64,000 nucleotides of DNA from Amoeboaphelidium protococcarum X5 (Eukaryota; Fungi; Aphelidiomycota). Position 1 is the first letter of the stretch, and every line of letters starts with the position of its first letter. The notes beneath the pieces are model-generated. The model saw only the letters and a list, made by a program, of their open reading frames with translations, searched no databases and was not told the DNA's origin. Where the stretch lies: NCBI GenBank assembly GCA_023515725.1, contig JALDTO010000098.1, positions 276,615 through 340,614 of the forward strand, written 5' to 3'. Made by a program: the position numbers and the translations under genes. Positions 20,301 through 50,381 of the stretch are shown here, in pieces.

Positions 20301-20504
20301 ACTCTGATAAACCTGGGTTAACACAAAAGAGCCATTTGCAGAGTATATCTGCTCATTCAACTTTCCGACAGCCTAATAAGCGTAGAAATTTCCTTTAGAA
20401 TCTTGTTTAGTAACGTACAAAGAGCCTGTGGCACTGATAGTAAAATCGACGCCAGCAGTGATTACATCGGCCAGCAGCAACCAAGATGAAACTATAAACC
20501 ACAT
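17364..20504 (-). CDS. Receptor-like protein kinase 1 (signal peptide, beta-propeller-like ectodomain, poly-Thr stalk, TM, TKL-type kinase)
   Basis: 1047-codon table-6 frame; kinase motifs 'AGGQGSIWL', 'VAKY', 'HNDIKAANYL', 'TDFG', 'RDVFA'; TM 'MISAVAAIVSGVFVIAVLIVGLY'. Confidence 0.85.
18835..19050 (-). repeat. ACN-codon microsatellite encoding the poly-Thr/Ser stalk of RLK1
   Basis: gta/gtt/gtc/gtg runs on the + strand; about 65 Thr/Ser/Pro codons. Confidence 0.9.
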
Positions 20505-20973
20505 TTTCGTATGCGAGTAATTTATTCAAAGCTTAATAGGGAGATGTAAATGAGACAAAAGCGCAAAATGACTTATAATCCGTAATCTGAACCCAATATG
20601 CATTGGAATAACCTTGGGATTGGACGAGTACAGGAATCTCTGATAGGAATCGTTATTAAATCTATTTTCATGTCTTATACCAAAATGCGATAATGAAAGT
20701 AACATCAGATACTGTATATAACATATATATCAGCTGTTTTTCGACCGCCGCAGCTGCTGAGAGTATCGTTGCGAGTGGCTTGTTTCTAATGCTATCATCG
20801 TTTCACCTCAACAGCTTTTGGGGGAGATCATACAGTGAGAATGCAACTCTCACGGTCGCGGAGACCCCGATTTATCTGCACACAGCGTCTAAAATTAAGA
20901 AATTAATATTGATCACGACTATTTTCTATTCATTTCATCGTTTCCTTTTACTATCATCATTTTTTATTATATA

Positions 20974-21380
20974 AGAAGTAATATCTTTTATTTGGGACCA
21001 AAAGTAAAACAATTTAAATTTTAACTTCGGAGAATATCTAGAAGTAAAATAATACTCACTTTTACTGCGCCATAAATGTCGCCGTAGTAAATCAAATGAT
21101 TATTTTACTTGGAGATCTTAATGGATGCCTAAAAGTATAATTACTTTTGGTCCCAAATAAAAGATTAATTAGCAAGTCAAACTTGAAATGATAACATGCA
21201 TATCTTAAGACAGAACTTGATAGTAAGATTGTGTTTAAAAAGGACCTTAAACCATGACTATCAGGATCCCAAAAAAGTTTTCAATTTTGATCCCAAATAA
21301 TGCATCAAAATGTTAATGAAACCCAACCAGGATGTCTTTGAAAGGTGTCACAGATATCTCAAGGAATCTCTAAGAAATCT
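20974..21380 (+). repeat. Left terminal inverted repeat
   Basis: Outer ~195 bp match the reverse complement of 29011-29205 with ~13 mismatches by manual count; inner ~200 bp match 28797-29010 more loosely. Confidence 0.9.
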
Positions 21381-21541
21381 CAGAAGGTGAACACAACTCG
21401 ACATATCAACCGAATGACGATGGGATAAATGTGCTGTGGTGACTTGAAATCCAACGCTGCTCCGAAATCGCTCAATCAGAACATCGGTAGCCAGATCATC
21501 CAAAAAATCAGAACGCCAATCTCTTTTTTTCAATTTTTACG

Positions 21542-22804
21542 ATGGACCAAAATCAGCTCACACCAAGAGAATGCGCCGCTAAACTAGAAGCCATTGAGAA
21601 GAAGATCGACGACTTGAGGACCAAGAATGAGTACAACGGTGTCGAAATTACTGACAATGAAGAGAAGAAGGAGATAATCGCGGATTTGAAGCAGAAGGAG
21701 AAAGAATGGAGCGCTCGACTCGATCGTGCTCAGTTCGCCTCTACTCAGAAGCCCACCTGGCAATCACCATCATTTACGCTTTCCGCCGAGCCAGCATCTT
21801 ATTCAGTGACTATTATGAATCAAAAGCAGGGCGGCGCATTGTTATTGGCTATTCCGTGTCTATCGAAGGGCAGACGATGGGATCGCGTTCTGCTCTTTCT
21901 GAAGGCCGTGTGTGGCGATTTCGATATTCAGCATTATTCCTTGTCAAGTAACAATTCTGATATCGAGCTTTCAGATGATCTGCACCTTCCTCCTGCCGAA
22001 TTCACGCTCTCCCCGATTGATGATTCTCATTCCGTGCTGACCGTTATTTTCCAACCGCTTCCTATAGTTCCCCGTAGCACGTTGTCGCGACGAACATCAG
22101 GAGCCACTACACCGATTGAAGAACCGTCATCATCATCAAGACCTCAAAAGAAACCACGAGTTGAGTCTGAAGTTGACAAGCTGGTTGTTGAAAGTACGAA
22201 AGCCTTTGGCCGCGACGCGACATTTGAAAAACGAATCTTTCAGCGGGATCAACACTGCATTATCACTCGACAATACAGGTCACTGAAAGCCTCCCATATT
22301 GTTGCTCACGCTTGGTGGATGGACCATCCTGATCGTAAAGAACGACTGCCAGAAGATATCAAAAGGATTATCCGTTCTCTTGATGGGGGTATTGATCATA
22401 TTACCAATGGAATATTTTTGGATGGATCGATTTCAGATGCGTTCGACCGAGGAGACTTTTCGTTTCAGTTTGTGGATGGGCATTACTATGTCGTTTCAAT
22501 TACACCTGACTATGATTCAATCGATGGACTCCAGGTTGATGAATGTGTGCGTAATCGCTGGGATGGCACTGTTTGGTGGTGTCCGGAAAATCGTCCCAAT
22601 CCTTATCTGATGGCATTTCATTTGCGTAATAGTGTGTTTGCTCATTGTCGTGGTGCTGCTGGTTATGATGAATTTGACACCGAAGATGACAAAGAGAATG
22701 TTAAGATTGCGAGATCGGTTGTCAGTGAGTTCTTTGAGAATTCTGAAATCGGAAGTAAGATTGCATCATCGCTTACTTCGGAAGCATTAGCTCAATTTGA
22801 ATAA
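21542..22804 (+). CDS. HNH-endonuclease-domain protein with coiled-coil N-terminus (Crinkler/CR-effector-like); cargo
   Basis: 'FEKRIFQRDQHCIIT...ASHIVA...GGIDHITNGIFL...AFD...RPNPYLMAFHLR' HNH_2-type motifs; 420 aa open in the standard code; TAA stop overlaps AATAAA. Confidence 0.75.
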   Translation: MDQNQLTPRECAAKLEAIEKKIDDLRTKNEYNGVEITDNEEKKEIIADLKQKEKEWSARLDRAQFASTQKPTWQSPSFTLSAEPASYSVTIMNQKQGGALLLAIPCLSKGRRWDRVLLFLKAVCGDFDIQHYSLSSNNSDIELSDDLHLPPAEFTLSPIDDSHSVLTVIFQPLPIVPRSTLSRRTSGATTPIEEPSSSSRPQKKPRVESEVDKLVVESTKAFGRDATFEKRIFQRDQHCIITRQYRSLKASHIVAHAWWMDHPDRKERLPEDIKRIIRSLDGGIDHITNGIFLDGSISDAFDRGDFSFQFVDGHYYVVSITPDYDSIDGLQVDECVRNRWDGTVWWCPENRPNPYLMAFHLRNSVFAHCRGAAGYDEFDTEDDKENVKIARSVVSEFFENSEIGSKIASSLTSEALAQFE

Positions 22805-23028
22805 ACTCATAAACTCTCATGGAAACTCGTATTTTAAGTTATGTCTACTATACATCATCACAGTTTATGTCCCAAACGCCCGAATAAATCAGCGAGCTCT
22901 CGTTCCATATTAACATCATTCGCTATTGTCATCACGATGCTGCTCATTTTGCCGCAAAGATGGACATCGTCAATAAAACCCTGTTTGTTTACTAACTTAC
23001 TTTCTTTCCAACAAAATTTTAGACTAGA

Positions 23029-24999
23029 ATGACCAGCTCGACGCAATCGGTGTCGGGTGAGAGTAAAGCACCATTATATGACCTTCATTGCCATCTAATG
23101 GGTTGCGGTCGATGGGACGATTTTTGGCAGAAGGAGTTGAAGGAAGCGCTGCATAGAGCCCATACGGCAAATTTTGATAAACTGAGAGGCTTAACGGATG
23201 AACAACAGAAATTGTATGAAAGTACACTACTTACGGCAGTGAAGGCGGTGGAAGAATCCGACGATAGGGACAGAGATAGGGACAGAATATCCCCAGTCTT
23301 AAAATGTGACCCTAAGGCCATTTCCACACAAATTCAAAGCGAAGCTCTGCAAACTGCTGTCAAGGAGAGTCCGAATGACCAATTCTTATTCAGCTCACAA
23401 CTGTTGGTTGACAATCGGGTATACAGTCGATTTACTCAACAAGGATTAGGTTGTTACGAGAATTTGGGTGTCATCATTTTTGCGGCAGTGATGGGCTTCT
23501 CCTCGCTACCGGTAATCATCGAAAGTGTGAAAGCTTTAATCGACGGTTTCAGTCGAACCCCAGTTATTACATTGTCATTATGGACGATTATCGTGTTTGG
23601 TGGGATTATGAGTACCAAACTAGTGATGTATCTTTTGTGCCAACGCCTACTCAGCTGCAAGATCAAGCAAAATGTCATATTCTTCAACGAACGTCTCTGG
23701 AAATTTGACATTTATCGTGAAGCACTCCTGGTTCAAGATATTTTTGATTGTCTGGGGATGGAGGGGATGAAACAGTTTTTCGAATCAACTGACGATGCAT
23801 GTGTCTTTACGCCTGGATTTTACCCGAAATGTTTCTTTATGAAGGATGCCCTATATTTTAGAGACATAACGGTTCTGCAACGATTGATTGAAGAAGTGGT
23901 CGAGAAATACAAGAAGGCTGGAGTTGTATATGTCGAGTTCTCTGTTAGCGTCAAAGATTTGTATAAGTATCCGTGGGTGTTTCATCAGCTCTGTGTCAAA
24001 GCGAAGGCTGAAGAAAGAGCCGCGCAAACCCATGACAAAGACGGGGCGGTGAAAGAGAAATCAGAGTGTAAATACCGCTTTTTGGCTGCTGTTGCTCGCA
24101 TGGAGCGAAGATTTGCGTTGAATGATGAGGATGCTATTGCCATAAACAGTAACACAGAGTCGGTAGATGGTTGGTTGGACAGGCAATGTCCTAATGATCC
24201 AATGTCTCACTACTTTGACAGCATGAAAGGTGGTGATGAACTTTTGAAAATGGTTCGCGGTCTCGATTGGGTGTCAGATGAATACGGGTACCCATATTGC
24301 CCGTTTTACCGTGAAAAGTTTTTCGAGTATTCTCGTCGGCAAATTGAACGTAATGCAGAGAAAGGGTTTCCACCATGTTTCGGATTGCGTCCACATTTGG
24401 GTGAAGTGACTGAGAAAGGTTATGAGGAGTGGGTTGATAAGAATGGACGAAAAGTACCTGGTTCGATTTACTTTGACGTTCACAAGAAAATTATCACCAA
24501 GATTGCTGAACGAATGATGCAGGGTCAATTGGTTCCGTATGATCTTGAAGGTAAAAGTTACTATGTTGGTATGCGGTTTGGCCATGGCGTAGCACTACTT
24601 GTCGATTCGCACTTTCAGAAAGGGATGGTAGTGGAACTCAATTACACCAGCAATAAGAGATTGCTTCGATTTCTCGGTTGTCACGAGTTTGTAGAAGCGT
24701 CCAAAAATAGCCTTGTGAATGAATTGATTGCCAACATTGTTATAGGTACGGATAATGACGGCATATTTCCCTGCATAACAGGGGATGAACAGTTAATTAA
24801 AGCTGAACTTCTGAACCTAAAAAAGGACGGCTTCGTCGATACCATTCCCGACCGACCTGATCAACAAATTGTTGCTCAAGCATACCAATGTACTTTCAAT
24901 TACTATGATGGTTGGTCACCCAGATTCCTCTTGCAGGCAAAAACTCATACAGTTTTGCCTTTGGATACAAATGCTGATCAATTGGCGCCCTACCCTTAA
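23029..24999 (+). CDS. Adenosine/AMP deaminase-like amidohydrolase; cargo
   Basis: Metal/catalytic motifs 'DLHCHL', 'VVYVEFS', 'HLGE', 'RFGHG', 'VELNYTSN', 'GTDNDGIF'; 656 aa open in the standard code; stop TAA-TGA. Confidence 0.75.
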   Translation: MTSSTQSVSGESKAPLYDLHCHLMGCGRWDDFWQKELKEALHRAHTANFDKLRGLTDEQQKLYESTLLTAVKAVEESDDRDRDRDRISPVLKCDPKAISTQIQSEALQTAVKESPNDQFLFSSQLLVDNRVYSRFTQQGLGCYENLGVIIFAAVMGFSSLPVIIESVKALIDGFSRTPVITLSLWTIIVFGGIMSTKLVMYLLCQRLLSCKIKQNVIFFNERLWKFDIYREALLVQDIFDCLGMEGMKQFFESTDDACVFTPGFYPKCFFMKDALYFRDITVLQRLIEEVVEKYKKAGVVYVEFSVSVKDLYKYPWVFHQLCVKAKAEERAAQTHDKDGAVKEKSECKYRFLAAVARMERRFALNDEDAIAINSNTESVDGWLDRQCPNDPMSHYFDSMKGGDELLKMVRGLDWVSDEYGYPYCPFYREKFFEYSRRQIERNAEKGFPPCFGLRPHLGEVTEKGYEEWVDKNGRKVPGSIYFDVHKKIITKIAERMMQGQLVPYDLEGKSYYVGMRFGHGVALLVDSHFQKGMVVELNYTSNKRLLRFLGCHEFVEASKNSLVNELIANIVIGTDNDGIFPCITGDEQLIKAELLNLKKDGFVDTIPDRPDQQIVAQAYQCTFNYYDGWSPRFLLQAKTHTVLPLDTNADQLAPYP

Positions 25000-25050
25000 T
25001 GAATGCAGGTATGCCTTTACCACTGGGTTTTAATGATGCCAATAAATCCT

Positions 25051-26085
25051 TTACTTTCTTGATCTCTTACTTTGTCTTCTATCAGGCTCAATACCTTCAC
25101 GTTCACGAATGCGTTTATCAGCGCGGTAGATGTCAAGTTGCTTTTGCCTCAGTGAATTGTCAATGTCTTGACTTAGCGGTGACACCTTTAGCACTTCAAA
25201 CAAGTTGAATTTCTGGTGCCGACCTTCCACTTGAACACTATTTAATCCCACCTCCTCAACAATGTACACCTTTAACGTGAATCGCTGTCCCTCTTTCTCA
25301 AACGCGCCTCGTTTATTCAACAACCTGACAAAGTCCCCACGTTTGATGGCCGAATCAATAACTTTATTGTTGTGCGCAATACTTTTCCTAATCAGTTCCG
25401 CTTCATCAAATGTATCTAATCGCTCGGGTATCTTTGCGATGCTGCTATGAAATGATGAGTTGTAATTTTGAACAAAGTCTCCCAGATTATCAATCCATCT
25501 ATTGGTATTATTACGCGTCAGGAACTTTTCAATCATCAGTTTGATCGTGCGATTGAACCTCTCCGCAATCCCTAAACACTTCTTATCATCCTTCCCACAA
25601 TACTGGGCAGTGATATTATGCTGCGACATCCAAGATGTTATTCGTTTGTTTTGAAACTCTTTACCATTATCAGTCTGTAAAACTTTGATCGGTCTTCCAT
25701 CGTTGACTGATTGTTGTCGGATTAGATCAAAGGCTGCCAATACAGTTTCTTGAGTTTTATCTTTCAATGCTTCAACATATGCATATTTGGTGTTGACATT
25801 GATAACGTTGAGTAAGATATGATAGTTTGAATTCTGCTTTTGGTATCGTGTCAAGAAGGTCAGATCTGCCTGGTAATGCCCGACTTTACCGTGGATCTTT
25901 GGAACCGATTTAGAGTTCTTTGGTTTCTGAAACACTTGGCTTATTGGATTTTCAGCAAGGAACTCCTTAACCTGTTTCATTGTGATTTTTGGATTCTGCT
26001 CCTTGGCGCGTTTCAACAGCTTATCAGCTCCAACAAACCCTGTTTTGGGATCATTGAAAAGTGTACTTAGTAATTGTTGAGACAT
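25051..26085 (-). CDS. Retroviral-type (RVE) integrase, Polinton clade
   Basis: 'YQADLTFL' (D), 'LQTDNGKEF' (D), 'GIAERFNRTIK' (E), 'YNSSFHSSI', 'GDFVRL..RGAFEK'; likely start MSQQLL at 26085; ends TAA. Confidence 0.92.
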   Translation of the reverse strand: MSQQLLSTLFNDPKTGFVGADKLLKRAKEQNPKITMKQVKEFLAENPISQVFQKPKNSKSVPKIHGKVGHYQADLTFLTRYQKQNSNYHILLNVINVNTKYAYVEALKDKTQETVLAAFDLIRQQSVNDGRPIKVLQTDNGKEFQNKRITSWMSQHNITAQYCGKDDKKCLGIAERFNRTIKLMIEKFLTRNNTNRWIDNLGDFVQNYNSSFHSSIAKIPERLDTFDEAELIRKSIAHNNKVIDSAIKRGDFVRLLNKRGAFEKEGQRFTLKVYIVEEVGLNSVQVEGRHQKFNLFEVLKVSPLSQDIDNSLRQKQLDIYRADKRIREREGIEPDRRQSKRSRK

Positions 26086-26125
26086 GTATATATCAAAAAA
26101 GATAATCTTTATCAATAAATAATAA

Positions 26126-27922
26126 TTAATTACTGGATCGATGACCCATTGGAACTGAGTTGTTTCCAATGAAATGGCGTCCTTTCCATGGGGTGGAATT
26201 AATTTGTTTTGTTAATGCATCCAGCTTCAGAATACTGAAATTATCTACGTTTTGCTGTTTTGAGCTCTTGTTTAAATTGACGCGTTTGAAGTCTCTTTGC
26301 ATTTCAATATTGACCGGTTCCCCTCGCATCATCAATTCAAAGTTTTTCATGTTTAACTGATCGTTGGGTATGCCTTTGCCTCGTAAGTGATACTTGATCT
26401 CCTCAACATCGCCTTGTTTTTGAACGTACTCAAGAAAGTATAACTTTGGGGCAATCCATCCACCATACAGGATTTTACTCACTCCAGGCAGGTCATCACT
26501 TATGCCTCCGATCTCATTATCCAGAGTTAATCCCTTCAAGTTCTTGACGTGAATTTGAATACTATCTGTATCTGTGTAGTAAGGCGCGTTTTCAAGCTGA
26601 TTTTTTGTGTCAGCGCTATTGAAATATAGATTAGTCTTTTGTAAGTAATCGAGCATTATCCTGCGACTGTACCCCAGAATGAAACTTCCCAGATAGCAAG
26701 GCTTTGAAATCTTTGTTGCAAGTTTGGATTCATCCTGATAGGTAAGGTAGAAGCTTCCATCGCTTAAATATCGCATTGATACTCCACCGTATTTGATGTG
26801 AAACTTGATGAATTCTTCGTGAAGGTAAATGATCACGTTCTCGTCAAGAATGGGCCGTTGGATGGTTTTACCATATAGTCCATTCATCATCAACTTGGCT
26901 AGTTTGTACTGGGCACTGCCCTTTGTAGCATTTTTCTTGAATTCATACAGGTAGTTGATGTAGTTATTGAACACGTTCTCAGTCTGCTCCCAGTAATATC
27001 CCTCCAATATATCTATTTGATACCCATTCGTGAGAGCGTTATCAATATCAACACTGTTATATGTTCCACATCCATCAACCAAATCCCATAATAATCGCCC
27101 ATCACTTCTCCTTGGCAAAATAGCATCAATCAAGTTTCTATTTGTTACATATTCCACGCGGTAGATGCCAAATTTTGAACACTTATTATTCTGTTGGATT
27201 GACTGGTTAAAGTATTTGCATGATGGAGTGCCAGGTCTCAGATGTACTGGAATACCTACTGGGAATTCGTTTTTCATGGCAGCTGGATACAAGGAATTCA
27301 CATCTGCATTAACTAAGTAGTCATCAATATCTTCAAACTTGATCTGCTTACGGATATAGGGCTCACGTTGGCTACTCACAAACTTGTGTTTGTATTTGTA
27401 TGTTCTCCCTCCATAAATTGACTCTCTAAAGAACTGCTCTTGCTCTGGGGTGGGTAGAAAAACTGGATTGTTGCTTTCCTTATACAAGAAATCAACCCAT
27501 GCAGCGTAAGTCAGCTTTGATGTTGATAGAAACTTGTAAAGATTAACACCGAAATTCTCGAAACAACTTTTGTTTAATCGCTGGGACAGTTCTTTCAATC
27601 CCATTACATCGCCTTCCAAGTATTTCAAACAATCTGTTCGGTCATCATTGCACATGTTATCCCACTCATCTCCCAATATGTAATCAAAATCACCTTTCTG
27701 AACTGCACACTCTAACTCCTCGAGGTTCTTTCTCAACGTTCCTGTAATGTGTTTCGATATATCAAAACACGAGATATTTCCAATACTGGCTTTGAGAATG
27801 GCTCCGTTGTTTAACAGCAGCGTATCCAGCTTGATATCCACATTATCGCTATGCATCTGATTGAGTTTCTTGACAAATTCGTAGTGATCAAATTTGCTGC
27901 CGTTGAATGCATTGATGATGAC
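26126..27922 (-). CDS. Protein-primed family B DNA polymerase, 5'-truncated (no ExoI)
   Basis: ExoII 'AFNGSKFDH' upstream of the called ATG, ExoIII 'YLEGDV', motif A 'DVNSLYP', B 'KLMMNGLYGK', C 'YTDTDS', 'APKLY', 'RGKG'. Confidence 0.88.
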   Translation of the reverse strand, partial: VIINAFNGSKFDHYEFVKKLNQMHSDNVDIKLDTLLLNNGAILKASIGNISCFDISKHITGTLRKNLEELECAVQKGDFDYILGDEWDNMCNDDRTDCLKYLEGDVMGLKELSQRLNKSCFENFGVNLYKFLSTSKLTYAAWVDFLYKESNNPVFLPTPEQEQFFRESIYGGRTYKYKHKFVSSQREPYIRKQIKFEDIDDYLVNADVNSLYPAAMKNEFPVGIPVHLRPGTPSCKYFNQSIQQNNKCSKFGIYRVEYVTNRNLIDAILPRRSDGRLLWDLVDGCGTYNSVDIDNALTNGYQIDILEGYYWEQTENVFNNYINYLYEFKKNATKGSAQYKLAKLMMNGLYGKTIQRPILDENVIIYLHEEFIKFHIKYGGVSMRYLSDGSFYLTYQDESKLATKISKPCYLGSFILGYSRRIMLDYLQKTNLYFNSADTKNQLENAPYYTDTDSIQIHVKNLKGLTLDNEIGGISDDLPGVSKILYGGWIAPKLYFLEYVQKQGDVEEIKYHLRGKGIPNDQLNMKNFELMMRGEPVNIEMQRDFKRVNLNKSSKQQNVDNFSILKLDALTKQINSTPWKGRHFIGNNSVPMGHRSSN

Positions 27923-28287
27923 CTGAGAATAGGTCGAATAACTGAGCAGGTGATTAATGAATTGTTCTTTTCCTTGCTCGCGAAATAAGCTAAATCCCGA
28001 ATTGGCATTCTTTCATTCATGCCGATTAGATATCCATCATTCGATAATTTGATTTTCAGTCGATATTCAAACTTCCTTTTAAAGTCTGTGTAGTCCATTT
28101 GATAGTAATCATTCAGCAGATCAACTAATGAATATGTGTCATCCTCAGATATTACCATGATATTATTCAGTTTTTTTCTGAGGCATTGCTTCTTACTATC
28201 AAAGTACAAACTAAACTCATCAAAGATATAATCTATAGTAGGAAGCCTCTTTGGCTCTTCGAAATTAAGTTTGTTTGTACGAACCAT
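27811..28287 (-). CDS. Element ORF, probably the pPolB N-terminal remnant joined out of frame
   Basis: 158 aa standard-code ORF preceded by the same AT-rich motif as the integrase; its last ~35 codons read the PolB ExoII region in another frame. Confidence 0.5.
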   Translation of the reverse strand: MVRTNKLNFEEPKRLPTIDYIFDEFSLYFDSKKQCLRKKLNNIMVISEDDTYSLVDLLNDYYQMDYTDFKRKFEYRLKIKLSNDGYLIGMNERMPIRDLAYFASKEKNNSLITCSVIRPILRSSSMHSTAANLITTNLSRNSIRCIAIMWISSWIRCC

Positions 28288-28344
28288 CGATGTATATAAT
28301 AGGAAATATATTTATTACCAAAATAATTAATTAATACCTCTTAC

Positions 28345-28790
28345 GTTTGACCTTTCGAGCTTTGAGCTTTGACCTTTGATCTATCTTTGACCTTTGCACC
28401 TTTTGACCTTTCACCTTTGATCTATCTTTGACCTTTGCACCTTTGCACCTTTTGACCTTTTGACCTTCAATTATTTAATTATTTTCTACAAAATTTTCAT
28501 TCCCAATATATAGCACGAGGTTGCATCACACATAGCTTGATCGGAAGTTTCAACTTTGACCTTTTTCACCTTTAGCAAATGATCTAATGACCTTTCGACC
28601 TTTCAACTTGTGATCTTTAACCTTTTGACGCTTCACCTTTGCATCTTTAAACTTCTACGCCTTTGTTTTGCACAATCTCGCATTCTATTGAGCTTTATGA
28701 GAATATTCAACTTTGACCTTTGCGCCTTTGACAAATGATCTAATCCCTAATCCTTTGACCTTCGACCTTTGACATATCACCTTTTGAGAT
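28345..28790 (+). repeat. Degenerate (T)TGACCTTT tandem array in two clusters
   Basis: Many units of tttgacct/tttgcacct/tttcacct at 28345-28470 and 28555-28790, all on one strand. Confidence 0.8.
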
Positions 28791-28796
28791 TTATTT

Positions 28797-29205
28797 GCGA
28801 TTTCTTCAAGATTTCTCGCTGATATCTGTAACGCGTTTCAAAGACATCCTATGTTGGGTTTCATCCAAATATTGTTGCATTATTTGAAATCAACATTGAA
28901 TGCTCGGCTGCGATCTCTTTATACGTGGTTTAAGTTCATTTTAAGACGATCTTGTTATTATCAAACTCAAGACGTAGTTTAAGTACTACTTGAGGGTCTA
29001 ACCATTCAAATTAATATTTTATTTGGGACCAAAATTAATTACACTTTTAGGCATCTATCAAGATCTCCAAGTAAAATAATCATTCGATTTACTACGGCGA
29101 CATTTATGGCGCAGTACAAATGATTATTATTTTACTTTTAGATATTCTCCGAAGTAAAAATTTAGCTTGTTTTACTTTTGGTCCCAAATAAAAGATATTA
29201 CTTCT
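28797..29205 (-). repeat. Right terminal inverted repeat
   Basis: Reverse complement of the left TIR. Confidence 0.9.
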
Positions 29206-29247
29206 TATATATCACTGTTCTAAAGTAATCAAAGAGCCAATTGCTCA

Positions 29248-32200
29248 TCATAGATTGACCAAATCATTCAATACGCGTTGAGCATGTACACGCGTAAATA
29301 TATTTTGATCCCAGGCCATATCAATTATTTGACAATATTTGTCGAGCCTTGGATCTTGGATGGTTGGTTGAATTTATACTCTGCCACCTGCACAAACATA
29401 CTCTTATATCTGTTCTTTAGTGAACCCCTTCCAAGCCGGCTGTCTGTTCAGCAGTTCCGCCAGAATGACAGCACCTGCAAAGACATCGCGCTTGGGTTTC
29501 AAATCATCAGATACAAGTTGCTTCATCCAAACTTCCGGTGCAGCGTATGTAGGAGTGGAACCAGCCAGTGCATTCCAATTCAGCCCGGTAACCGTCTATG
29601 ATGTGCCCAGCAGGGTACAAATACCAAAATCGGTCAGGCAGACGCGTACCTGTCCAGATGAAGTGTCCACTAGATAATTGGCAGCCTTGATATCGTTGTG
29701 GACGACACCTGCCGCGTGTAGCACTACCATAGCAGAAAATACGTCAATAGAGAGAGACCTAATCAGTTCAAAGCTCCAAACAATTTGCTAACTTAACACG
29801 CTCTTCATATTTACAAAATCATCCAATGATCCATTTTGGTAATAGAACATCAGCATAACCAAATTCTCAGCATCAAAACCTGCCAATTTTGCAATGTGAG
29901 CACAATCTTTGAATCTCCACATCAATGCAACCTCTTGTAAGAAAGCCTCTGCACTAACCTTATTAGTAGAATACTTTGCAACCATAGTCTAACCATCACA
30001 TTAACGGAAAGGATGATCAGACGGAACAGTAAGTATCTAGACAAGCCAAATACTACCTTGACCGCCTGCATTTAGCAGAGAATTAGGAATTTTACGAAAA
30101 TTCTGCCCCTCACTAAGCTTTAAGAATCCGGGCACCGAAATTTCAAATTAGGTAGAGACCATAGTAGTGCCACCCTACATTTATGTGCTTCGAATCTCCA
30201 TGACAGTGGAGGAAGCTGCAGAGGGAGCGACACTATTCTGAGTTAACGTGCTGGCTTTAGTGCTAATCTTCTTGGTACGACTAAACTTTTGACGCGCATA
30301 TAAAGCAACAGCTAATACTGCGACTACAAAGATGCCAGAAACAATAGCTGCAACTGCAGATATCATTGACGACTAATTTTGTTGAGCCTAAGGCCCAGAT
30401 TGATCTCGAGCACCCTCATTTGAATTCGTGGATACAGATTAGCCTCCAATAGAACCACCAATACCAAACGTTATTAGCCCATTAATTTAAGAGCTAACTG
30501 CAAAAGATGAGCTCGATGACAATTTAACTGGCGTCTTTATAGAATAACTCAGAATACCAGCTAAAGATGATACTGTATATGTAACGGCAGTCGATGTAGA
30601 TAGGGAGTGAGAAGTATATGAGAATTATGTAGCAGAATCATTGGTAACGGAGCCATTAGTAACAGCAGTAAATTACAAGGACGTAGAGAACGAGGTGGCA
30701 GTCGGTGTAGAAGTAGTGGTAGTAGTCGTTGTTGTGGTTGTGGTCGTGGGCGTCGGAGTACTAGTTGTGGTTATTGTACTCGTCGTGGTGCTAGTGGTAG
30801 TGGTTGTCGTAGTAGTTGTTGTAGTAGTCGTCGTAGTCGTAGTAGTGGTCGTGGTTGTTGTAGTAGCAGTGGTGTACAGCACGGTAGGTACAGGTAGGAA
30901 ATCCAACAATCTCGCAACACCTCTCTGGATAGGAATGGCAACTTGGCCACCTCTTGTATCATTAAACAAAACGCCCTGTCCATCAGTGATAAAGCCAGCA
31001 AGCATTTTGTTCTACGGAAGCCACTAAAAATAGCCAAATCTTGTATTTTGTGTTGCATTGTACAATAAACTGCGACCCCAAATCTTGCCCAGATTATGAT
31101 AAGCAAACACAATACCATACTGAAACGGGAACTAACGATTGTATTGCGTAGAAATTACACCAGTAGTGTTAATACTCAAAACAGCAGCATCAGAATATAA
31201 AGCATAAAACAAATTATCCTCATTGTCCATGAGCATGTTGCCTGTAGTGGATCCAGCACCACTTACGCTGGACCACCATGTAACAGATGTCCCGCCATTC
31301 AGCTTGAAAAAATAAGCCCCAGATACACCGGTTGCACCCATTTATAACACGGGAGTATTAACAACATTAAAAACAGTGAACGGACCACTGGAGGATACCT
31401 GTTAAATCGGAGCACCAGCATTATCAAAAGTTAGCTAAATAGGCGCCTAATCGCCTGGGCCACTAAATCTCCAAAAATATAAGAAAGCTCCAGTGGGATC
31501 AAATACTATCAAGTTGACATCGATGCCAGAATCATAAAGAGTATAAACTTCAAAGCCTTTGGTATCCGTGAGAGCCGTACCTGACTATGCATACTGCTGA
31601 TAATAAAGCACACCTGTGGGTCCTATAGTTAAACGCGAAAATACAGCGAAGCTACCATCATCCACATTATAGATGTGATTGAGGTTATTGTCCATCATGA
31701 AGATGTGCCCGCCACCATTACTGGTTGCGACAATGGTACCATTATTGTCGTACATATTCACTGGATTGGTTGGCCATCCGCCGTAAGAGTTCCACATCTG
31801 TACCGCAAACCATCCGTTTGGCCCAAGCACAGACCAATTTGGAACATTATATGAACCAGGGGCATACAGTTGAGCTGTGCGGAGCAAAGTACCGTTGGGA
31901 TGAAACTTGGCAACGACGCCTTAAGTGCCACTCGGGATGTTGATAGACTTCACAGGCTAATGATTAGTGCTATAATACTTAAAGTCTTGCGATGTTGTCC
32001 AAGTAGAAAAGAACAGATTATCCTGCGCGTCAACAAAAGGACCTTAACCCCAATCATCACCGCTACCAGCAATGTGGAAGTACCATAATAGATTACCTTA
32101 GGTGTTAAATTTCATGTAGATACTGTCTGAACCACCTCCAGCGTAGAAAGTTGTTGTTGTCACAGACCCATTCGCAGAATAGATCTACTCACCAACTTTA

Positions 32201-32340
32201 TATACATATGCACGTGCGTAAAAGTTACCTGCGGAGTCAATAGTGGAGAGTTCATAATCACTCGAGCTTCGAATAGTAAATTCATTAGAAGCAACAGCCA
32301 AGTTGATTAGCAATGCAGTCAAAGCCAGGCGAATATTCAT
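29248..32340 (-). CDS. Receptor-like protein kinase 2 (paralog)
   Basis: 1031-codon table-6 frame from MNIRLALTALL to ...DLVNL-TGA; same architecture; kinase C-lobe nearly identical to RLK1. Confidence 0.85.
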
Positions 32341-32517
32341 TGATGGCAAATTATTCGTAAATAATGACGATAAAGCACGAAGTCTGTACTGTATGCTGAT
32401 GTAATAGTAACACAAGTTGTCTGATTGGTGCATTAATAGCAGGATTGATTGGCCATTCTTAGGCCGAAAAAGCAACACATGAAGCTAACACGGTAAATAG
32501 ATTATTTTACTTCAAAT

Positions 32518-35500
32518 TCATTTCAAACCATAAAGAGAATTCAGAACTTACATTGCGTGCGGCCTTAACGTGACATCCTACTCCCAAGCAGTGTAAATGA
32601 TCGCAAGTAACGCGTCATTCTTCGGGTCTTCAAAGCATGGAGTCAAAGCAGGACGTTCGCCGGCCAAGACAGCTTGACTTATTAGATCTCTGCTTTGTCC
32701 TGCCCATGCCACTTTTCTGTTGACCATCTCAGCCATTATGACAGCACCAGCATAGACGTCACGTTTCATTCTCTGTTAATCAAGCAATACTTGCTTAAGC
32801 CATACTTCAGGTGCCGCGTACATCGCAGTAAAGCCATTAAGCGCATTCCATGTCATACCAGTAACTGCTTTGGATGAACCCAAGAGGGAGCATATACCGA
32901 AATCGGTAAGACAAACGCGAATTTAACCAGATGACACATCGACGAGATAATTGCCAGCCTTAATATCATTGTGCACGACACCTGCTTGATGAGTAACCTG
33001 AATAGCGGCAAAGACGTCCACAGACAATGAATACACCAAGTCGAAATTATAAGTTACTAGACGGCTAATTTCGCTCTTACTTTCGATGAACATTTCAAGT
33101 GAACCTTGCTAGTAATGAGCCATTAAAAGGATCATATTCAGTGGGTCAAATCCGACTATTTTTGCTATGTGTGCGCTATCCTTAAATCGCCACATAAGAG
33201 CCACCTCTTACAAGAAAGCTTCAGACTAGCCCACGCCATTACTATACTTGGCAACAAATTTCTCGCCGGGCTGTGGTCTTAAAGGATATTAATAAGGTAG
33301 ATCCAGTATTTAAGCCAGCCATATAGAACCTTGGCCACCAGCGGTGAGTTGAGAATTAGGAATCTAACGAAAGTTGAGCCCTTCTGTCAGTCTCATGAAC
33401 CCAGGAACTGAGATCTCATAGGATGTCGGAACCAGTGTCGTTCCGCCTTGCATATTCGTAGCCCCTTGATGTATAGTGGTAGTTAATGCAAAAGATGCAA
33501 GGCTACTTTAAGTATACGTACTTGCCCTGGTGACTTGTGAGGTGATCTTAACACGGCGACGATGTAATTTGTGACGAGCATATAAAGCAGCTAGTACAAC
33601 TACCAGAACAAAGACAGCAGCTATTATTGCCACGATAGTCGATAACATCGAAGATGAGCCTTATAGAGCTGATGAATTAGACTAATTTTGAGTAGAATCA
33701 TCCACACCAGTTGTCGATTGAACCTTACTGTACGCAAAGTCTCCCAATCCAAAAGTGACAACGCCAACAGATAAGGAAGTCTTAATAGTTGTAAATGAGG
33801 ACGACTACAGCAATGGTTATGTCGTCTGTTCGACTAGCGACGTATTTGTCTTTGTGCTTGTACCAAAAGCTACCGTTGATGATGCATTCGCAATACTAGT
33901 AAATAGACCTGCGGCGACATTCCAGGTACTTGAAGATGCAGCGGATGCGAAAGGCGCAGTATTATTATTAGCAGTAATTGAAGTCGTGGTAGTAGGAGTA
34001 ATAGTGGAAGTTGTTGTCGTCGTCAATGTTGTCGTAGTCGTTGTGGAGGTGGTAGTAGATGTTGTAGTTGTTGTTGTTGTTGTGCTTGTAGTCGTCGTTG
34101 TACTTGTAGTAGTAGTTGTTGTTGTCGTGGTGGTTGTGGTAGTTGTCGTCGTCGTACTAGTCGTAGTACTGGTGGTGGTAGTCGTCGTGGTCGTTGTAGT
34201 GGTAGGTACCATAGGAAGCAGATTACCAATTTTTGCAATGCCTTGAGCGAAGGCGTAATTCTACGTAGTACCAGAATCTTCAATAATGTTCACAGAACTT
34301 CCACTTGTTTGGAAAGCTACTAGAAAGTCGCGATTTGCCAATACAAAACTTCCAAAGAGAGTAATACTTTACGCAGAAGTGTAGATTACAGTTCGGTTGA
34401 GGAAAGAACCAGCTTCATTAAAAACCATAATGATTGCGTACTGACCGGTAAATGGATGCACATACTAATTAGTGACAACACCATTGTTGTTAAAGCTAAT
34501 CGTAGCGGCTGCGGACACACCGCTAAAGACCATATTGTCATTTGTATCCAAAGCGAGAGATAATCTTACAGCGGCAGAGCCGGTTATAGACGACCATTTC
34601 AATATAGATCTGCCACCATTAAGCTTGAAGACATAAGATCCGGATACTCCAGCTGCTCCAAGCGTCATAACTGCAATGTTAGAAGCATTGTAAGCAACAA
34701 AAGGACCATTGACGAACACCGAAGCATAAACAGCACCAGACTTGTCAAAAGAAACTCCACCAGGTATTTCATCACCTGTACCAGCAAATCGCCAATAGTA
34801 CTAGAATGCACCGCTGGAGTTGAATACCAACATAGGGCAGTCCACTCCGCTAACTAAAGGTGCAGAAATCAAGCGACCTGTGGAATCAGTCAAGCTCACA
34901 GCAGTTTACTGATTCATTTGCAAAAATTAATCCCCATTAGCGTTAATTGTCATTGTGACATCCACGGCGAAAGTGTTATCGTTGTGGAAGTACACAAGAT
35001 TTAGATTATTGTCAAGCATGAACCTATGACCAGTGCCGCTACTGGACGGGCCAGCAACATTATCATTATTATAATAGACGACTGGATTGTTTTACCAACC
35101 ACCGAAGCTGTTCCATATATGAACCAATACCTGTCCATTAGGACCCACGACTGAACTCTGAGGCACATTCCACGAGCCAGCCGCGTCCAAACGCGCAGTC
35201 CTTAACAGAGTGCCATTACTAGAAAATTTGGCAACAACTGCCTATGAGCCACCACTTAAAGGAATAGTTTTGGCCACTTGGTTAGTTGTTGTGTAAATTT
35301 TGAAATCACTAGACTACTCCCATATTACTGCAATAATGTTATCAGAGGGATCAATGTTAAGAGAATACATATAATCGTCATTAACACCTGTCATCATGAG
35401 ATGCCACTACAACGCGCCAAACATATTATACTTTGCAATGAACGATTCAGCACTTCTCTGATAAACCTGAGTTTACACGAATGAGCCATTAGCAGAGTAT

Positions 35501-35658
35501 ATACGCTCATTCGCGACTCTGACATGTGAATACGTGTAGAAGAAGCCTTTCGAGTCTTGTTTAGTTGCCCATGTACCCGTGGCAGCCCTGACTGTAAAGT
35601 CGACGCCAGCAGTGATTAAGTTGGCAAGCTGCAGGGAAGCTACCACGATAGCCCACAT
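32518..35658 (-). CDS. Receptor-like protein kinase 3 (paralog)
   Basis: 1047-codon table-6 frame from MWAIVVASLQL to ...LYGLK-TGA; 'HNDIKAGNYL', 'TDFG', 'RDVYA'; poly-Thr at ~33980-34203. Confidence 0.85.
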
Positions 35659-36444
35659 TCTTAGAAATAGTTACATATCGAATCAAACTATTTAAAAATT
35701 ATAATCTTATAATTATCAACTTAACCAATTATATGATGTAAAAAGGAGCACCGTAACGAAATTTTGGGACTATATGCAGCGAAGTGGCTTGGGATTGGCC
35801 AGAATAAGCATCTCTGATTGGAGCCTTAATTATAACTAATGGGTATGGCCTCTTTCATTAACTATTAATCTTTGGCCAAATTCACTGCATAACGCTGTAT
35901 TAGACTTTATATATAATGGCTATTGTTTCAGTAATACGCTATTTTTGCTTTAAAAAATACGATGAAGAATATAGTAACAAAGAAGTGATGGGAGCATGAC
36001 ACTTTAACAGAATCGCGCCAAAGATGATTAGAAAGTAGAATTTTATTGCAATATAGATATATTTCGCAGCTATTATTGATTTGTTCAGTTAGAACCTCTA
36101 TGGCTGCATCTGCGTAAACTCCATACACAATCGATAGTTTGATACAGTACCACAAAGCAACCGCGCGAAATTGAATTCAAAAACTGAGAAAAGGTCCAGT
36201 AAATTCTATATAAGTTATACTAGCAGCAATTAGAACAAGGGAGTCAGTGTACAGTAGAGTTAAATACTTTGTTGTTTCATGTCTTGATCATAGCGGCGGA
36301 AATCATTCCAATCAACGGGCGACGGTCAACTGTCTACTCATTCATTCATTCTCGCTATTTCGCCCCATCGCAACAGACTGAAAGTGAGAGCCGGTGAAAC
36401 CATCAGGATTCCTCTCTCCCTCTCTCGTTGCTCCCAGTACAACA

Positions 36445-46835: not shown

Positions 46836-47000
46836 TTGATGAAAAGTGATGATGCTTAATATAGATACCATGTTTCCTAAAATAGAATTGTTGCACCGAG
46901 TCTCGGTGTATAAGCCGCTTTAGATTATCTAGTTCTTCTTCTTCTTGCTATAATCTGAACAGAATACCAATACTAAATAACTCTCGATTAATACAATCAA

Positions 47001-47936
47001 ATGGTAAAGAAGGATAAGAAGGGAAAGTCTCCAAGTCAGACGCGTGCCTCAAAGATACCCGAGGAGCCAATGCTGAAGAATGTCGTCGACAAGAGAGCCA
47101 AGAAACAGAATAGCAAGCCAGTTGCTGCTGATGAGCGTCCATTGAGTATGTTTGTCCAGCCTGGCTTGTAGCTGCAGACTCGTGAACGCGCTCAGTCCAG
47201 TGCTCCATCCGTTGTTTCAAACTCCACTGATGCAAAATCTGGCGTGACTGACAACACCGCAAATGCATCCAAGAAGACTCCAGCTGCACCTACCAACTCT
47301 GCTCCTCTGACCGTGTCATCAAATGCTCAATCATCTTCAAAGGCTGTACCTAATGCTGGTGCGCAGATGAAGAATCCAACATCCATGCAAGAGGCTATGC
47401 AGAATTTCAAATTGGCAAAGAAGTAGGCGGAGAAAAACCAAAAGTACAAGCTTAACAGTACTCAGCGTCTGATTGATGCCATGGCTGATGTGATGGTTCT
47501 CCTTCTGACTCGTGCCATGTGTGAGGGTATTGACGAGAAGATAGAGATCCGTATTTACAAGAAGCCGCAGAACATCGGCTCTGGTATGGCCGTCGCTGAA
47601 TATCGTGATGGCCGTGATGCCAAGGAGAAGGGTCAGAAGACTACCAATATTCAAAATTTGGTTGATAACAATGATGATTTCTCAATCTTGCTGTCTAATG
47701 AGCTGACTCTGCGCTCCATCAATCAGCAAACTCCTGATGGATACAAGGCTTTAGATTGTGCAGACAACTGGAAGTAATTCTACGATGTCGTGCAAAAGTT
47801 TAGCTTATGGTTCAGATTCTGTCTGGCAGTCCACAAGCGCATCGGTTGGAAGTGTGTCCTTGACAGATCCATGTTGAACGGTATGGATAGCAGATTCTTG
47901 GGCTTTGTCACTATCAAGATTTCCAAGTTTGTCTGA
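47001..47936 (+). CDS. Hypothetical protein (312 codons)
   Basis: Open under table 6 with host-like codon usage; ends TGA followed by AATAAA at 47949. Confidence 0.65.
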
Positions 47937-47959: not shown

Positions 47960-48100
47960 ATTGAATTAATAGATTGGTAAATTTCATCTTATCATCAAGT
48001 TTCTTAACTGATTTAACTCGCTTACAGTCTATTTCATCGGTTTGTCCGACAAACATTACTGTATATATCAGGCGCGCCTTTCGGCGCGGCAATTCCATTA
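47960..48100 (-). ncRNA. Candidate Fanzor omegaRNA (scaffold + 3' guide)
   Basis: CGCGCC-GAAA-GGCGCG hairpin over the last codons; nested TACAGT/ACTGTA and GTTTGTC/GACAAAC stems just downstream; position as expected for TnpB/Fanzor. Confidence 0.5.
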
Positions 48101-50381
48101 AGGTCTGCTACCATGCATCGCGTAATGGCGGACTATTTGAGCCATACTCCTGTAAGCATTAACGTCCCGATCTACAAAGACGTCACATCCAGTGTTTTGG
48201 CAGTTTGGGCAAACTCCAAATCTTGATTGGACTCTTCGGTTAAAACGATCAGGACATTCTTACGATAGGATTTCTGGACCATCAGCTTTGATGCAGACAG
48301 TTTAAGCCCGGCGACGACCAGGCAGTATCTTCTTTGCCTTCTTGTGTCGGCACCTCATCACCACTTCATGCTCCCATTGAAGATCTGCATGACATAATGA
48401 GTGCTGCTTACTAGTGTGGAACTCCGGCGTTATAACTACCAATGCCCGACGACTGAATTCAAACGCGAATTTTCTCACCGGAACAGGAGGATTACCACGC
48501 ACGTGCTTCACACCAGCGTTACCAAGAGCAATTACCGGAGGCTTATCTGGAGGTGAAAACTTGCCAATAGATTTACGCAGTTCGCGTTTCCTCTTCTTTG
48601 CAGCTTTACCTCGGCGCCGATCGTTGATTTTAGGCACTGGTGGCTTTGGTCTGCCATACATCATGTTGATGACTTTACCAAACGCAGACTTGGTCGCGCA
48701 AAATCGTCGGAATCTCCAATTACGATGGAATGATCTTGAGTAGAAGGCATAGACGTCCTCAAAATATCTGATGTAAACATCGAGATACTACTGGCAAGTG
48801 TGTGATTAGGCCATATCTTACTCCATCAGCGTGATTTCAGTTGGTTTGATATGCAACAGATGGGCTTCAGACTCTGTAGTCAATGCAAGACGTTACCAGT
48901 ATCCAGCAGATATGTGGCCCGTTTCTTTTAGCTCCTTCTTGGCTTCTTTTAGCGTAATTGCACCATCGACGTCCGCGTCGTCGCCCCACACCAGTACGTT
49001 CTTCTTACCAGGGTCAACGCCAATCAATCGAGAGCCATCTAATCTTTGTTGGAGATTCCGACAGTTTTCCAAAGCAAAAGCCCCAACGATTACTTGAGAC
49101 ACGTCAATGCTTCGTGCTTTTCTCTGCAGGTCTGAAGCTTCATTTGCATACGCTTTCCCACCTTAATCTGAAACAGACACGGAGCACGCAAAACGATCAG
49201 AGGTGATACTGACACTGACGTTTTTAGATTGAGCCATCCGCTGTTAAAGACCCAAAACTTTAAGCCTTAGGATACATTACCGTTGATCGTCCTCCTCTTT
49301 CGACTCCTCCCCCAACTGATTGCCCAGGCGATACTGTTCAAATCCCCACTGAGCCAAAACTTTATTGTCAAAGCAGATGTGGCGCGGAACATCGGTACCA
49401 GTAGGGAAAATCTTGAATGATGGCAAGCCTATCTCCTTGAGAGTTTAACGCTAATACATCAGATATTGGACCAAAACTTTCTAGCCCTCCTAATTCTGAA
49501 ATGCATGGTGTGCTCTTGATGGCATGTATGTTTGATGGGTATCACGCTACTTCATCTTACCCGATTTCTATCGCTTGAAACCGATGAGTCCATGCAGCTG
49601 ACTAGGAGATTATGCTTTTCTTTTACTGTATCTCCTTCTTGGAGCTCTGTCTTTAAAAGAAGTGGTGACAATATCCAATAAATGGTGACGATGCATTGAG
49701 ACCAAGTGCCGAACTTCTTCAACTTATAACAATTGCAGCAACTCGTCCTTAATAGCAGCATCTTATTGCGCAATTGTCTCCTCATCTTCACCAGCATCGT
49801 AATCAGGAGGCAAATGTATCTGAGTCGCGGGATTAATCTCCAAGTACTCGCCCCCAAAGTGTTCCATCGTGTTAACAGCTTCTTCAGTCAGCAAAGAGTT
49901 GAGCAGCTATAGAAACACGGTAAGCCTTCGGCCTTTTACATTAAAGGCCTCCATTTAAGCTTTAATCACCTTCTTCTAGTAGACCCATATAGTTTCAGTC
50001 AGATGCCAGGTGATAGCTTAAATAATCTTACGCGCTTGAAACACGTACAGGTTAGGATTTGGACCAATCAGGCTTTCGTGCCTCAATCTCTATCGCACTT
50101 CAGGAGCGATTGTTTCAGCCAGTATTCGTGTGTACATTGTCACGATGAAACGCAGAGTTGCAAAGATACTCCAGCATTGACGCGAAATACTGCTAATGAG
50201 ATAGCTCAGGTAGTGCCTTGCCGGCTTCATTCCATACATTAAGACTGAGATAGATCAGACGGGATGCAAAGGTGAGGTGCACTGAGCTCAGTCGAATCTG
50301 TGGTATCAATCTCTCTTTATCACCATCGCTAAGATTCAAGACAGTATTTAGTTTGCATTTACGTGTTACTTTCTTTGCCAT
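48068..50381 (-). CDS. Fanzor1-like (eukaryotic TnpB-derived) RuvC nuclease, ~770 aa, host code, one frameshift at ~50115-50190
   Basis: RuvC-I 'IGVDPGKKN' (D 49013), 'ALGNA', rearranged RuvC-II 'TPEFHTSK' (E 48422), Zn ribbon 'CPNC', RuvC-III 'VDRDVNA', C-terminal 'GSRPQWNCR'; 48068-50137 free of TGA. Confidence 0.85.

Follow-up and report, generated by a model that had tools for sequence, protein, structure and literature searches.

The 64,000-nucleotide stretch of Amoeboaphelidium protococcarum X5 DNA analysed in this study (the window) probably carries one copy, frameshifted and likely dead, of a multi-copy, non-autonomous DNA transposon that duplicates TA. The intact copies of this transposon encode a Fanzor1 that is predicted to cut DNA under RNA guidance and likely aids copying of the element into empty sites. 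The features behind this reading are given below in the direction of the gene, with the evidence for each in brackets.

50868..50871, minus strand: 5' flank ATTA, the predicted TAM, including the 5' TA duplication at 50868-50869 (contigs of four runs and two other-copy flanks)
48025..50867, minus strand: non-autonomous TIR DNA transposon of 2,843 bp, CAGT...ACTG, with Fanzor1 as its sole gene (contig depth, loose ends, empty-site joint)
50843..50867, minus strand: left imperfect terminal inverted repeat (15/25 match with the right one)
50133..50381, minus strand: Fanzor1 coding part 1, start of the WED and REC, from the ATG (first 82 residues as in the intact sibling P0003)
50126..50132, minus strand: frameshift of 2 nt within a short run of CA, seen in the assembled window copy only (contigs, colinear siblings)
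48068..50128, minus strand: Fanzor1 coding part 2, remaining REC and WED, RuvC and zinc finger, to the TGA stop (table-6 frame, sibling alignment)
49193..49195, minus strand: G397R in the [TS]DG motif of the WED, private to the window copy (sibling comparison and contigs)
49013..49015, minus strand: RuvC-I Asp in DPG (VDPG) (aligns with DPG in GtFz1, DPN in SpuFz1)
48422..48424, minus strand: alternative RuvC-II Glu (PEFHTS), six residues ahead of the zinc finger (aligns with EHYTS in GtFz1, EYKTS in SpuFz1)
48212..48391, minus strand: segment of about 60 aa that separates the two halves of the zinc finger and has three additional conserved Cys (alignment, predicted structure)
48164..48166, minus strand: RuvC-III Asp in RD (DRDVNA) (aligns with SpuFz1 RD, within a stretch not significant by itself)
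48023..48090, minus strand: predicted omegaRNA scaffold (folding, shuffles, window scan)
48073-48088, minus strand: 6-bp hairpin with a GAAA loop over the last codons (predicted fold)
48025..48049, plus strand: right imperfect terminal inverted repeat, within the predicted omegaRNA scaffold (end comparison, fold)
48023-48063, minus strand: terminal stem-loop, closed by the duplicated TA (predicted fold)
48023..48024, no strand: TA target-site duplication on the 3' side, closing the terminal stem in the omegaRNA prediction (shared contig start, fold)
48008..48022, minus strand: predicted guide, the 3' flank of the window copy (analogy with the SpuFz1 extension)

The Fanzor1 gene, its code and its copies

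An earlier, sequence-only reading of this DNA had proposed that reading TAR as Gln uncovers a long Fanzor frame, and this was confirmed: under table 6 a minus-strand frame at 48068-50254 stays open over 728 codons, of which 24 are TAA/TAG. That reading had also found only 60-120-aa scraps under the standard code. The frame is indeed fragmented under table 1, but its longest pieces are 161, 89 and 55 aa. The initial 40 or so of the 728 codons are out-of-frame sequence upstream of a break. The Fanzor1 gene of the window copy runs under table 6 from an ATG at 50381 to the TGA at 48068 with a frameshift of 2 nt near 50127; the second frame, from the ATG at 50381, is 88 aa long, and the complete protein has 771 aa. 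Table 6 is the host's own code, as 16 neighbouring host ORFs take TAR as Gln too, and UAR=Gln in Amoeboaphelidium protococcarum is reported in a passage of PMC5304391.

Judged from sequence comparison, the window gene is almost certainly a Fanzor1, as had been proposed. When profile A3, which includes the sequence P0039, was compared with 177,635 PDB sequences at E<=10, it picked out only GtFz1 (PDB 9CER-9CET; best match, E 4.2e-9) and SpuFz1 (E 5.5e-8). One caveat is that this profile depends on P0039 as a bridging sequence, a distant Fanzor-like protein (21%, E 7e-3); without it, the window protein alone and an aphelid-only profile matched nothing in PDB or Pfam. The sibling P0038 exceeds the PF07282 cut-off, and the ESM Atlas gave 0.98 to clusters with DUF8286 (54%) and Cas12f1-like_TNB (42%). 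The alignments of the family are shallow and the AlphaFold models poor (pLDDT 38 for the full length, and 49). Using the pLDDT-49 model, all of Foldseek ranks 1-6 were Fanzor1 structures with SpuFz1 at the top (best E 2e-3, TM 0.29), and a wide structure search with VIA-align had no Fanzor among its 50 rows, which says nothing given the weak query model.

The motifs described in the sequence-only reading are all present. These are the full D-E-D RuvC triad (49013-49015, 48422-48424 and 48164-48166), the rearranged RuvC with Gly at the canonical RuvC-II site (the conserved Gly of ALG), and the WED/REC-like motifs FKIFP..RHICFD and SITSD. RuvC-I, for which Yoon 2023 uses DPG as the criterion, reads VDPG or IDPG in 7/7 aphelid rows, and DRDVN, with the RuvC-III RD after the zinc finger, is invariant in 12/12 rows. 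In P0003 the alternative Glu is E654, followed by six residues and then H661, and the canonical RuvC-II Glu is absent. All five aphelid families have SDG or TDG as the [TS]DG motif of the WED, from which the window copy alone deviates. Compared with the C4 motif of Bao and Jurka, the zinc finger reads HxxC...CxxC in the window protein and CxxC...CxxC in the sibling P0038, the first Cys being replaced by His in four of the five families. The three extra Cys between its halves occur in 7/7 aphelid rows (five families) and are mostly gapped in P0039; their segment was modelled as a beta hairpin (pLDDT 72-79), and alignment and model make a second metal (zinc) site possible there. From its sequence, the protein of the intact siblings is predicted to be an RNA-guided DNA cutter.

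A protein search recovered six relatives from 6,331 candidates, all of them A. protococcarum hypothetical proteins, and further searching added P0038, also from A. protococcarum, and the distant P0039. Cluster 1 has 10 members, comprising seven distinct 771-aa proteins (one under two accessions) and shorter ones of 753 aa, 220 aa and 723 aa, the last being the mis-started model of the window's own copy. Cluster 2 has 14 members, six of 772 aa, and several cluster copies are truncated or decayed. The seven intact 771-aa siblings, all annotated at NCBI and with KAI3631682.1 among them, are 99% identical and differ at only 2-12 positions, which makes a recent expansion likely. The five aphelid families are 41-86% identical to P0003, and this suggests a long residence in the lineage. 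Scans of viral and metagenome contigs found no relatives with back-translated patterns, which miss TAA/TAG Gln codons. Two proteins, P0008 and P0037, are annotated as fusions of a kinase-like N-terminal part with a Fanzor C-terminal half and are perhaps gene-model joins across a truncated insertion; Saito 2023 has P0037 among its FZ1 tips.

Element ends, predicted TAM and predicted omegaRNA

Contig depth steps at about 48020 and at 50871, and loose ends from other copies fall at 48020, 50871 and 50874. In X1 and X3 the depth of 48020-50871 is about tenfold that of the flanks (961-1377 for single contigs against 74.5 for the empty-site contig), contig depth not being a copy number. The common element contig starts at 48023, at TA followed by CAGT, and at the far end the contigs that four runs of one sample have in common extend across ACTG-TA-AT as far as 50871, where the depth falls. 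Two other flanks diverge at 50871 or three bases further and both also carry ATTA. Runs X5 and X6 were left out as they contain short, low-depth pieces only, and the low-share runs X7-X11 were likewise left aside. Since the shared contigs have these limits at both ends, the element was taken to be 48025-50867 with a TA duplication, and its ends and duplication are very probably correct as defined. A motif built from the two ends was found at those two ends only within the window. A 12-nt inverted repeat (48028-48039/50513-50524) was rejected as the ends because copies extend to 50871 and differ at 50522.

CAGT ends are Tc1-like, and it is its ends that give this non-autonomous element the label of Tc1/mariner type. 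Among the 38 ORFs scanned (from 63 table-6 window ORFs of at least 200 aa), none matched a transposase family, in agreement with the earlier remark that none is adjacent, and the only integrase lies in a Polinton-like element 22 kb off. This Fanzor1 sits in a eukaryotic TIR DNA transposon with a TA duplication, in an aphelid genome, rather than in IS607. In the direction of the gene, ATTA is on the 5' side of every flank seen whereas the 3' side shares TA only. This asymmetry predicts ATTA as the TAM, and on these sequences the assignment is likely to be right. However, there are three readable 5' flanks from one sample, with contigs that match the window slightly further being favoured in placement, and ATTA could also be a preference of the transposase or a part of the element end.

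Only 43 nt lie between the gene's stop codon and the right end. For the terminal 78 nt the predicted fold has z -4.29, and none of 200 shuffles was equally stable. In a scan of 72 windows along the element this fold was the best (z about -4.4), the runner-up having z -2.46; the opposite strand folds at z -4.06 and the left end at z -1.27. These folding models predict, with good confidence, that an omegaRNA is made from the right end. Passages of the literature on Fanzor1 RNAs describe the TIR and TSD inside their scaffolds (Yoon 2023), a first stem-loop of 7 bp and RNA lengths of 75-150 nt (Xu 2024; PMC11423790), and a guide-type extension of 14-15 nt for SpuFz1 (PMC10432273).

One close known counterpart is SpuFz1 with its element Spu-1 (Saito 2023; PDB 8GKH, 9CEU-9CEZ), which is likewise a Fanzor-only, multi-copy TIR element with a TAM ending in TA, two conserved bases past the left end and an omegaRNA from the right end (here predicted). 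For Spu-1, whose flanks are asymmetric in the same way, a passage of PMC10432273 gives IRs of 30 nt, CA as the conserved bases upstream of the left IR, and the TAM CATA. The element described here differs in its predicted TAM (ATTA, not CATA), in its weaker repeats (15/25), in a predicted scaffold that overlaps the stop codon and in a gene written in table 6; its protein is longer, has His as the first zinc Cys and has the extra Cys-rich segment. GtFz1 RNA overlaps its coding end according to a passage of PMC10432273, as is predicted here, and a first stem-loop of 7 bp, as given in part of the literature, resembles the 6 bp predicted here. However, GtFz1 and PpFz1 (9CF0, 9CF1) have the TAMs TTAAN and ATN, the GtFz1 RNA is 150 nt long, and their identity to the window family is low (10-16%). 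The Fanzor1-only Mariner elements of the PUl-4 type, in the part of Bao and Jurka 2013 (PMC3627910) that describes them, also have Fanzor as their sole gene, TIRs and a TA duplication. Their TIRs are said there to match those of confirmed Mariner transposons, whereas no partner element was found here in the scanned window ORFs.

Probable damage, the empty allele and the proposed role of the nuclease

Because the siblings are colinear across the joint of the two frames, the break in the window copy is a 2-nt loss in the CA run and no intron, and a spliced intron was ruled out as there is no room for one. Such an intron, or a single-copy host gene domesticated from a Fanzor, would fit the fully host-like codon use and the failure to find a transposase nearby in the 38 scanned ORFs, but it is extremely improbable given the many near-identical copies with different flanks and the empty allele described below. 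An intact window copy in the cell, with the 2-nt break introduced by assembly, is also rather unlikely. The break does fall in a dinucleotide run, and all X1 and X3 contig depth at the site has two extra letters, with the short form in no contig; these data are assembled contigs of one sample from which rare variants are dropped, so the frameshift could be such an error. However, contigs collapse one divergent copy among many, and the window copy has six substitutions found in 0/7 intact siblings. One of them is G397R, in an otherwise invariant motif: residue 397 is Gly in 7/7 intact siblings and in P0004, P0005 and P0006 (SDR in the window, SDG in the siblings), and the window base in this codon disagrees with every contig covering it. 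The six private substitutions favour real decay, and we consider the lesion to be genuine with fair confidence. The window copy likely makes no working protein, but it could still supply a guide.

The proposed mechanism is as follows. A Tc1/mariner-type transposase encoded elsewhere in the genome would move the element in trans, inserting it at ATTA and duplicating TA. An RNA of about 80 nt from the right end would carry the stop codon, the inverted repeat and the TA in its scaffold and about 15 bases of the flank as its guide. The Fanzor of intact copies would load such RNAs and cut ATTA and the adjoining flank at sites free of the element, and the element would then be restored or spread when the break is repaired from a chromatid or homologue that has it. 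This homing role is somewhat better than an even prospect. In the part of the review PMC13565253 that bears on this, restorative homing is listed as shown for TnpB and IscB and not for Fanzors, so the homing step is one that we infer here; the same part states that homing may help cut-and-paste elements less.

An empty allele is represented in X1 and X3 by a contig that passes from 48013 to 50874 by way of 16 letters of its own. Compared with the window flanks, 9/16 aligned columns of these letters differ, and ATTA and the first guide bases are gone. The flanks around the empty site show 22 differences in about 340 bases (about 6%), and there are other clusters of differences nearby, such as 6 in 23 bases at 50921-50943. 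We take the A. protococcarum genome to be a hybrid, and the literature search found no paper on this. A canonical Mariner excision footprint does not fit the empty allele, with differences on both sides of the TA, and neither does a cut scar 14-21 nt from the TAM. A single complex event would account for the scrambling of the 9/16 columns, which is therefore a lead only. An improbable wider proposal is that Fanzor cuts matching empty alleles, so that escape mutants alone survive, and that the scrambling is a natural record of eukaryotic Fanzor1 homing by a clade locked to its host by 25 in-frame TAA/TAG codons and equipped with an extra metal-binding module. No second target of the window copy's guide was found below 5 mismatches within the window.

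These observations also bear on the alternative that Fanzor1 is an active or once-active passenger without homing, with plain cut-and-paste spread and ATTA as a transposase preference. The position of Fanzors in the review cited above would agree with this, as would the truncated or decayed state of several copies and the persistence of an empty allele opposite the window copy. However, that allele is without ATTA and the seed, and this suggests that it is not a target. Across five families that are 41-86% identical, the triad and motifs have also been kept, and the element's right end is precisely where a structured RNA is predicted; both points imply selection on the nuclease and guide. The passenger alternative is thus possible but unlikely, and the reading preferred here is a nuclease that likely aids copying into empty sites.

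Earlier catalogues and neighbouring elements

The sequence-only reading had expected a recoded Fanzor to be missed by standard-code surveys, and this proved incorrect. The host was annotated with the right code and its proteins are in NCBI nr; KAI3645781.1 (P0004), an 86%-identical sibling, is labelled FZ1 in Saito 2023, and sister families are in Yoon 2023. KAI3645781.1 is alike over its full length, including the motifs and C-terminus, and is tip node2540 of branch FZ1 in the Saito et al. 2023 supplement (PMC10432273). A term search of the tree table of that study returned 12 A. protococcarum rows, nine of them FZ1 and four of these from this clade. Table S2 of Yoon 2023 has 28 A. protococcarum rows, seven from sister families at 41-43% identity; the 771-aa family was not found there by N-terminal peptides or four accessions, and long cells of the table seem to be cut, which makes C-terminal terms uninformative. 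Across Amoeboaphelidium as a whole, Fanzor-like rows number 112 in Yoon (84 from A. occidentale and 28 from A. protococcarum) and 38 in Saito, some with a long extra N-terminal region (PMC10432273, PMC10711439). The two supplement files of Jiang 2023 gave no match to the family. A search of main texts, with preprint and subscription supplements outside its scope, found no paper that combines Fanzor and Amoeboaphelidium, and no title on this element turned up in the literature on Fanzor and the genetic code.

The family is therefore already catalogued as Fanzor1 and carries little weight as a catalogue item; no description of its ends, TAM or RNA turned up in the literature searched. What is gained is a system suited to testing: its ends are defined, its TAM (ATTA) and a compact RNA of about 80 nt are predicted, and it has seven intact siblings. 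Since the genome has one site in both filled and empty form, a genome-wide test of eukaryotic Fanzor1 homing is also possible.

The use of the host code by the Fanzor was compared with that of its neighbours. TAR makes up 25/51 (0.49) of the Fanzor Gln codons and 294/601 of those in the 16 host ORFs, most of which have Pfam matches (Fisher p 1.0). In contrast, 0/95 Gln codons are TAR in four ORFs of the Polinton-like element (p 1e-25), which end in TAA under table 1, so the difference that had been drawn between the Fanzor and an unrecoded Polinton stands. The host-like TAR share of 0.49 and the restriction of the five families to A. protococcarum suggest that the element has long resided here and that the code hinders its horizontal escape. 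The TAA ends of the Polinton-like ORFs are likely read through by the host.

The Polinton-like element itself (20968-29211) is 8.2 kb long with inverted repeats of 203 bp (94%), and its four ORFs encode HNH_2, a 656-aa protein that matches no Pfam family, an rve integrase and a polymerase B of the protein-primed type; the ORFs scanned include no capsid gene. Three paralogous receptor-like kinases with Thr-rich stalks lie at 17364-20525, 29248-32511 and 32518-35682, and two of them flank this element. Beside the Fanzor1 transposon, a convergent ORF at 46959-47936 (plus strand) without a Pfam match, with TAR at 3/20 of its Gln codons, stops 87 nt from the right flank.
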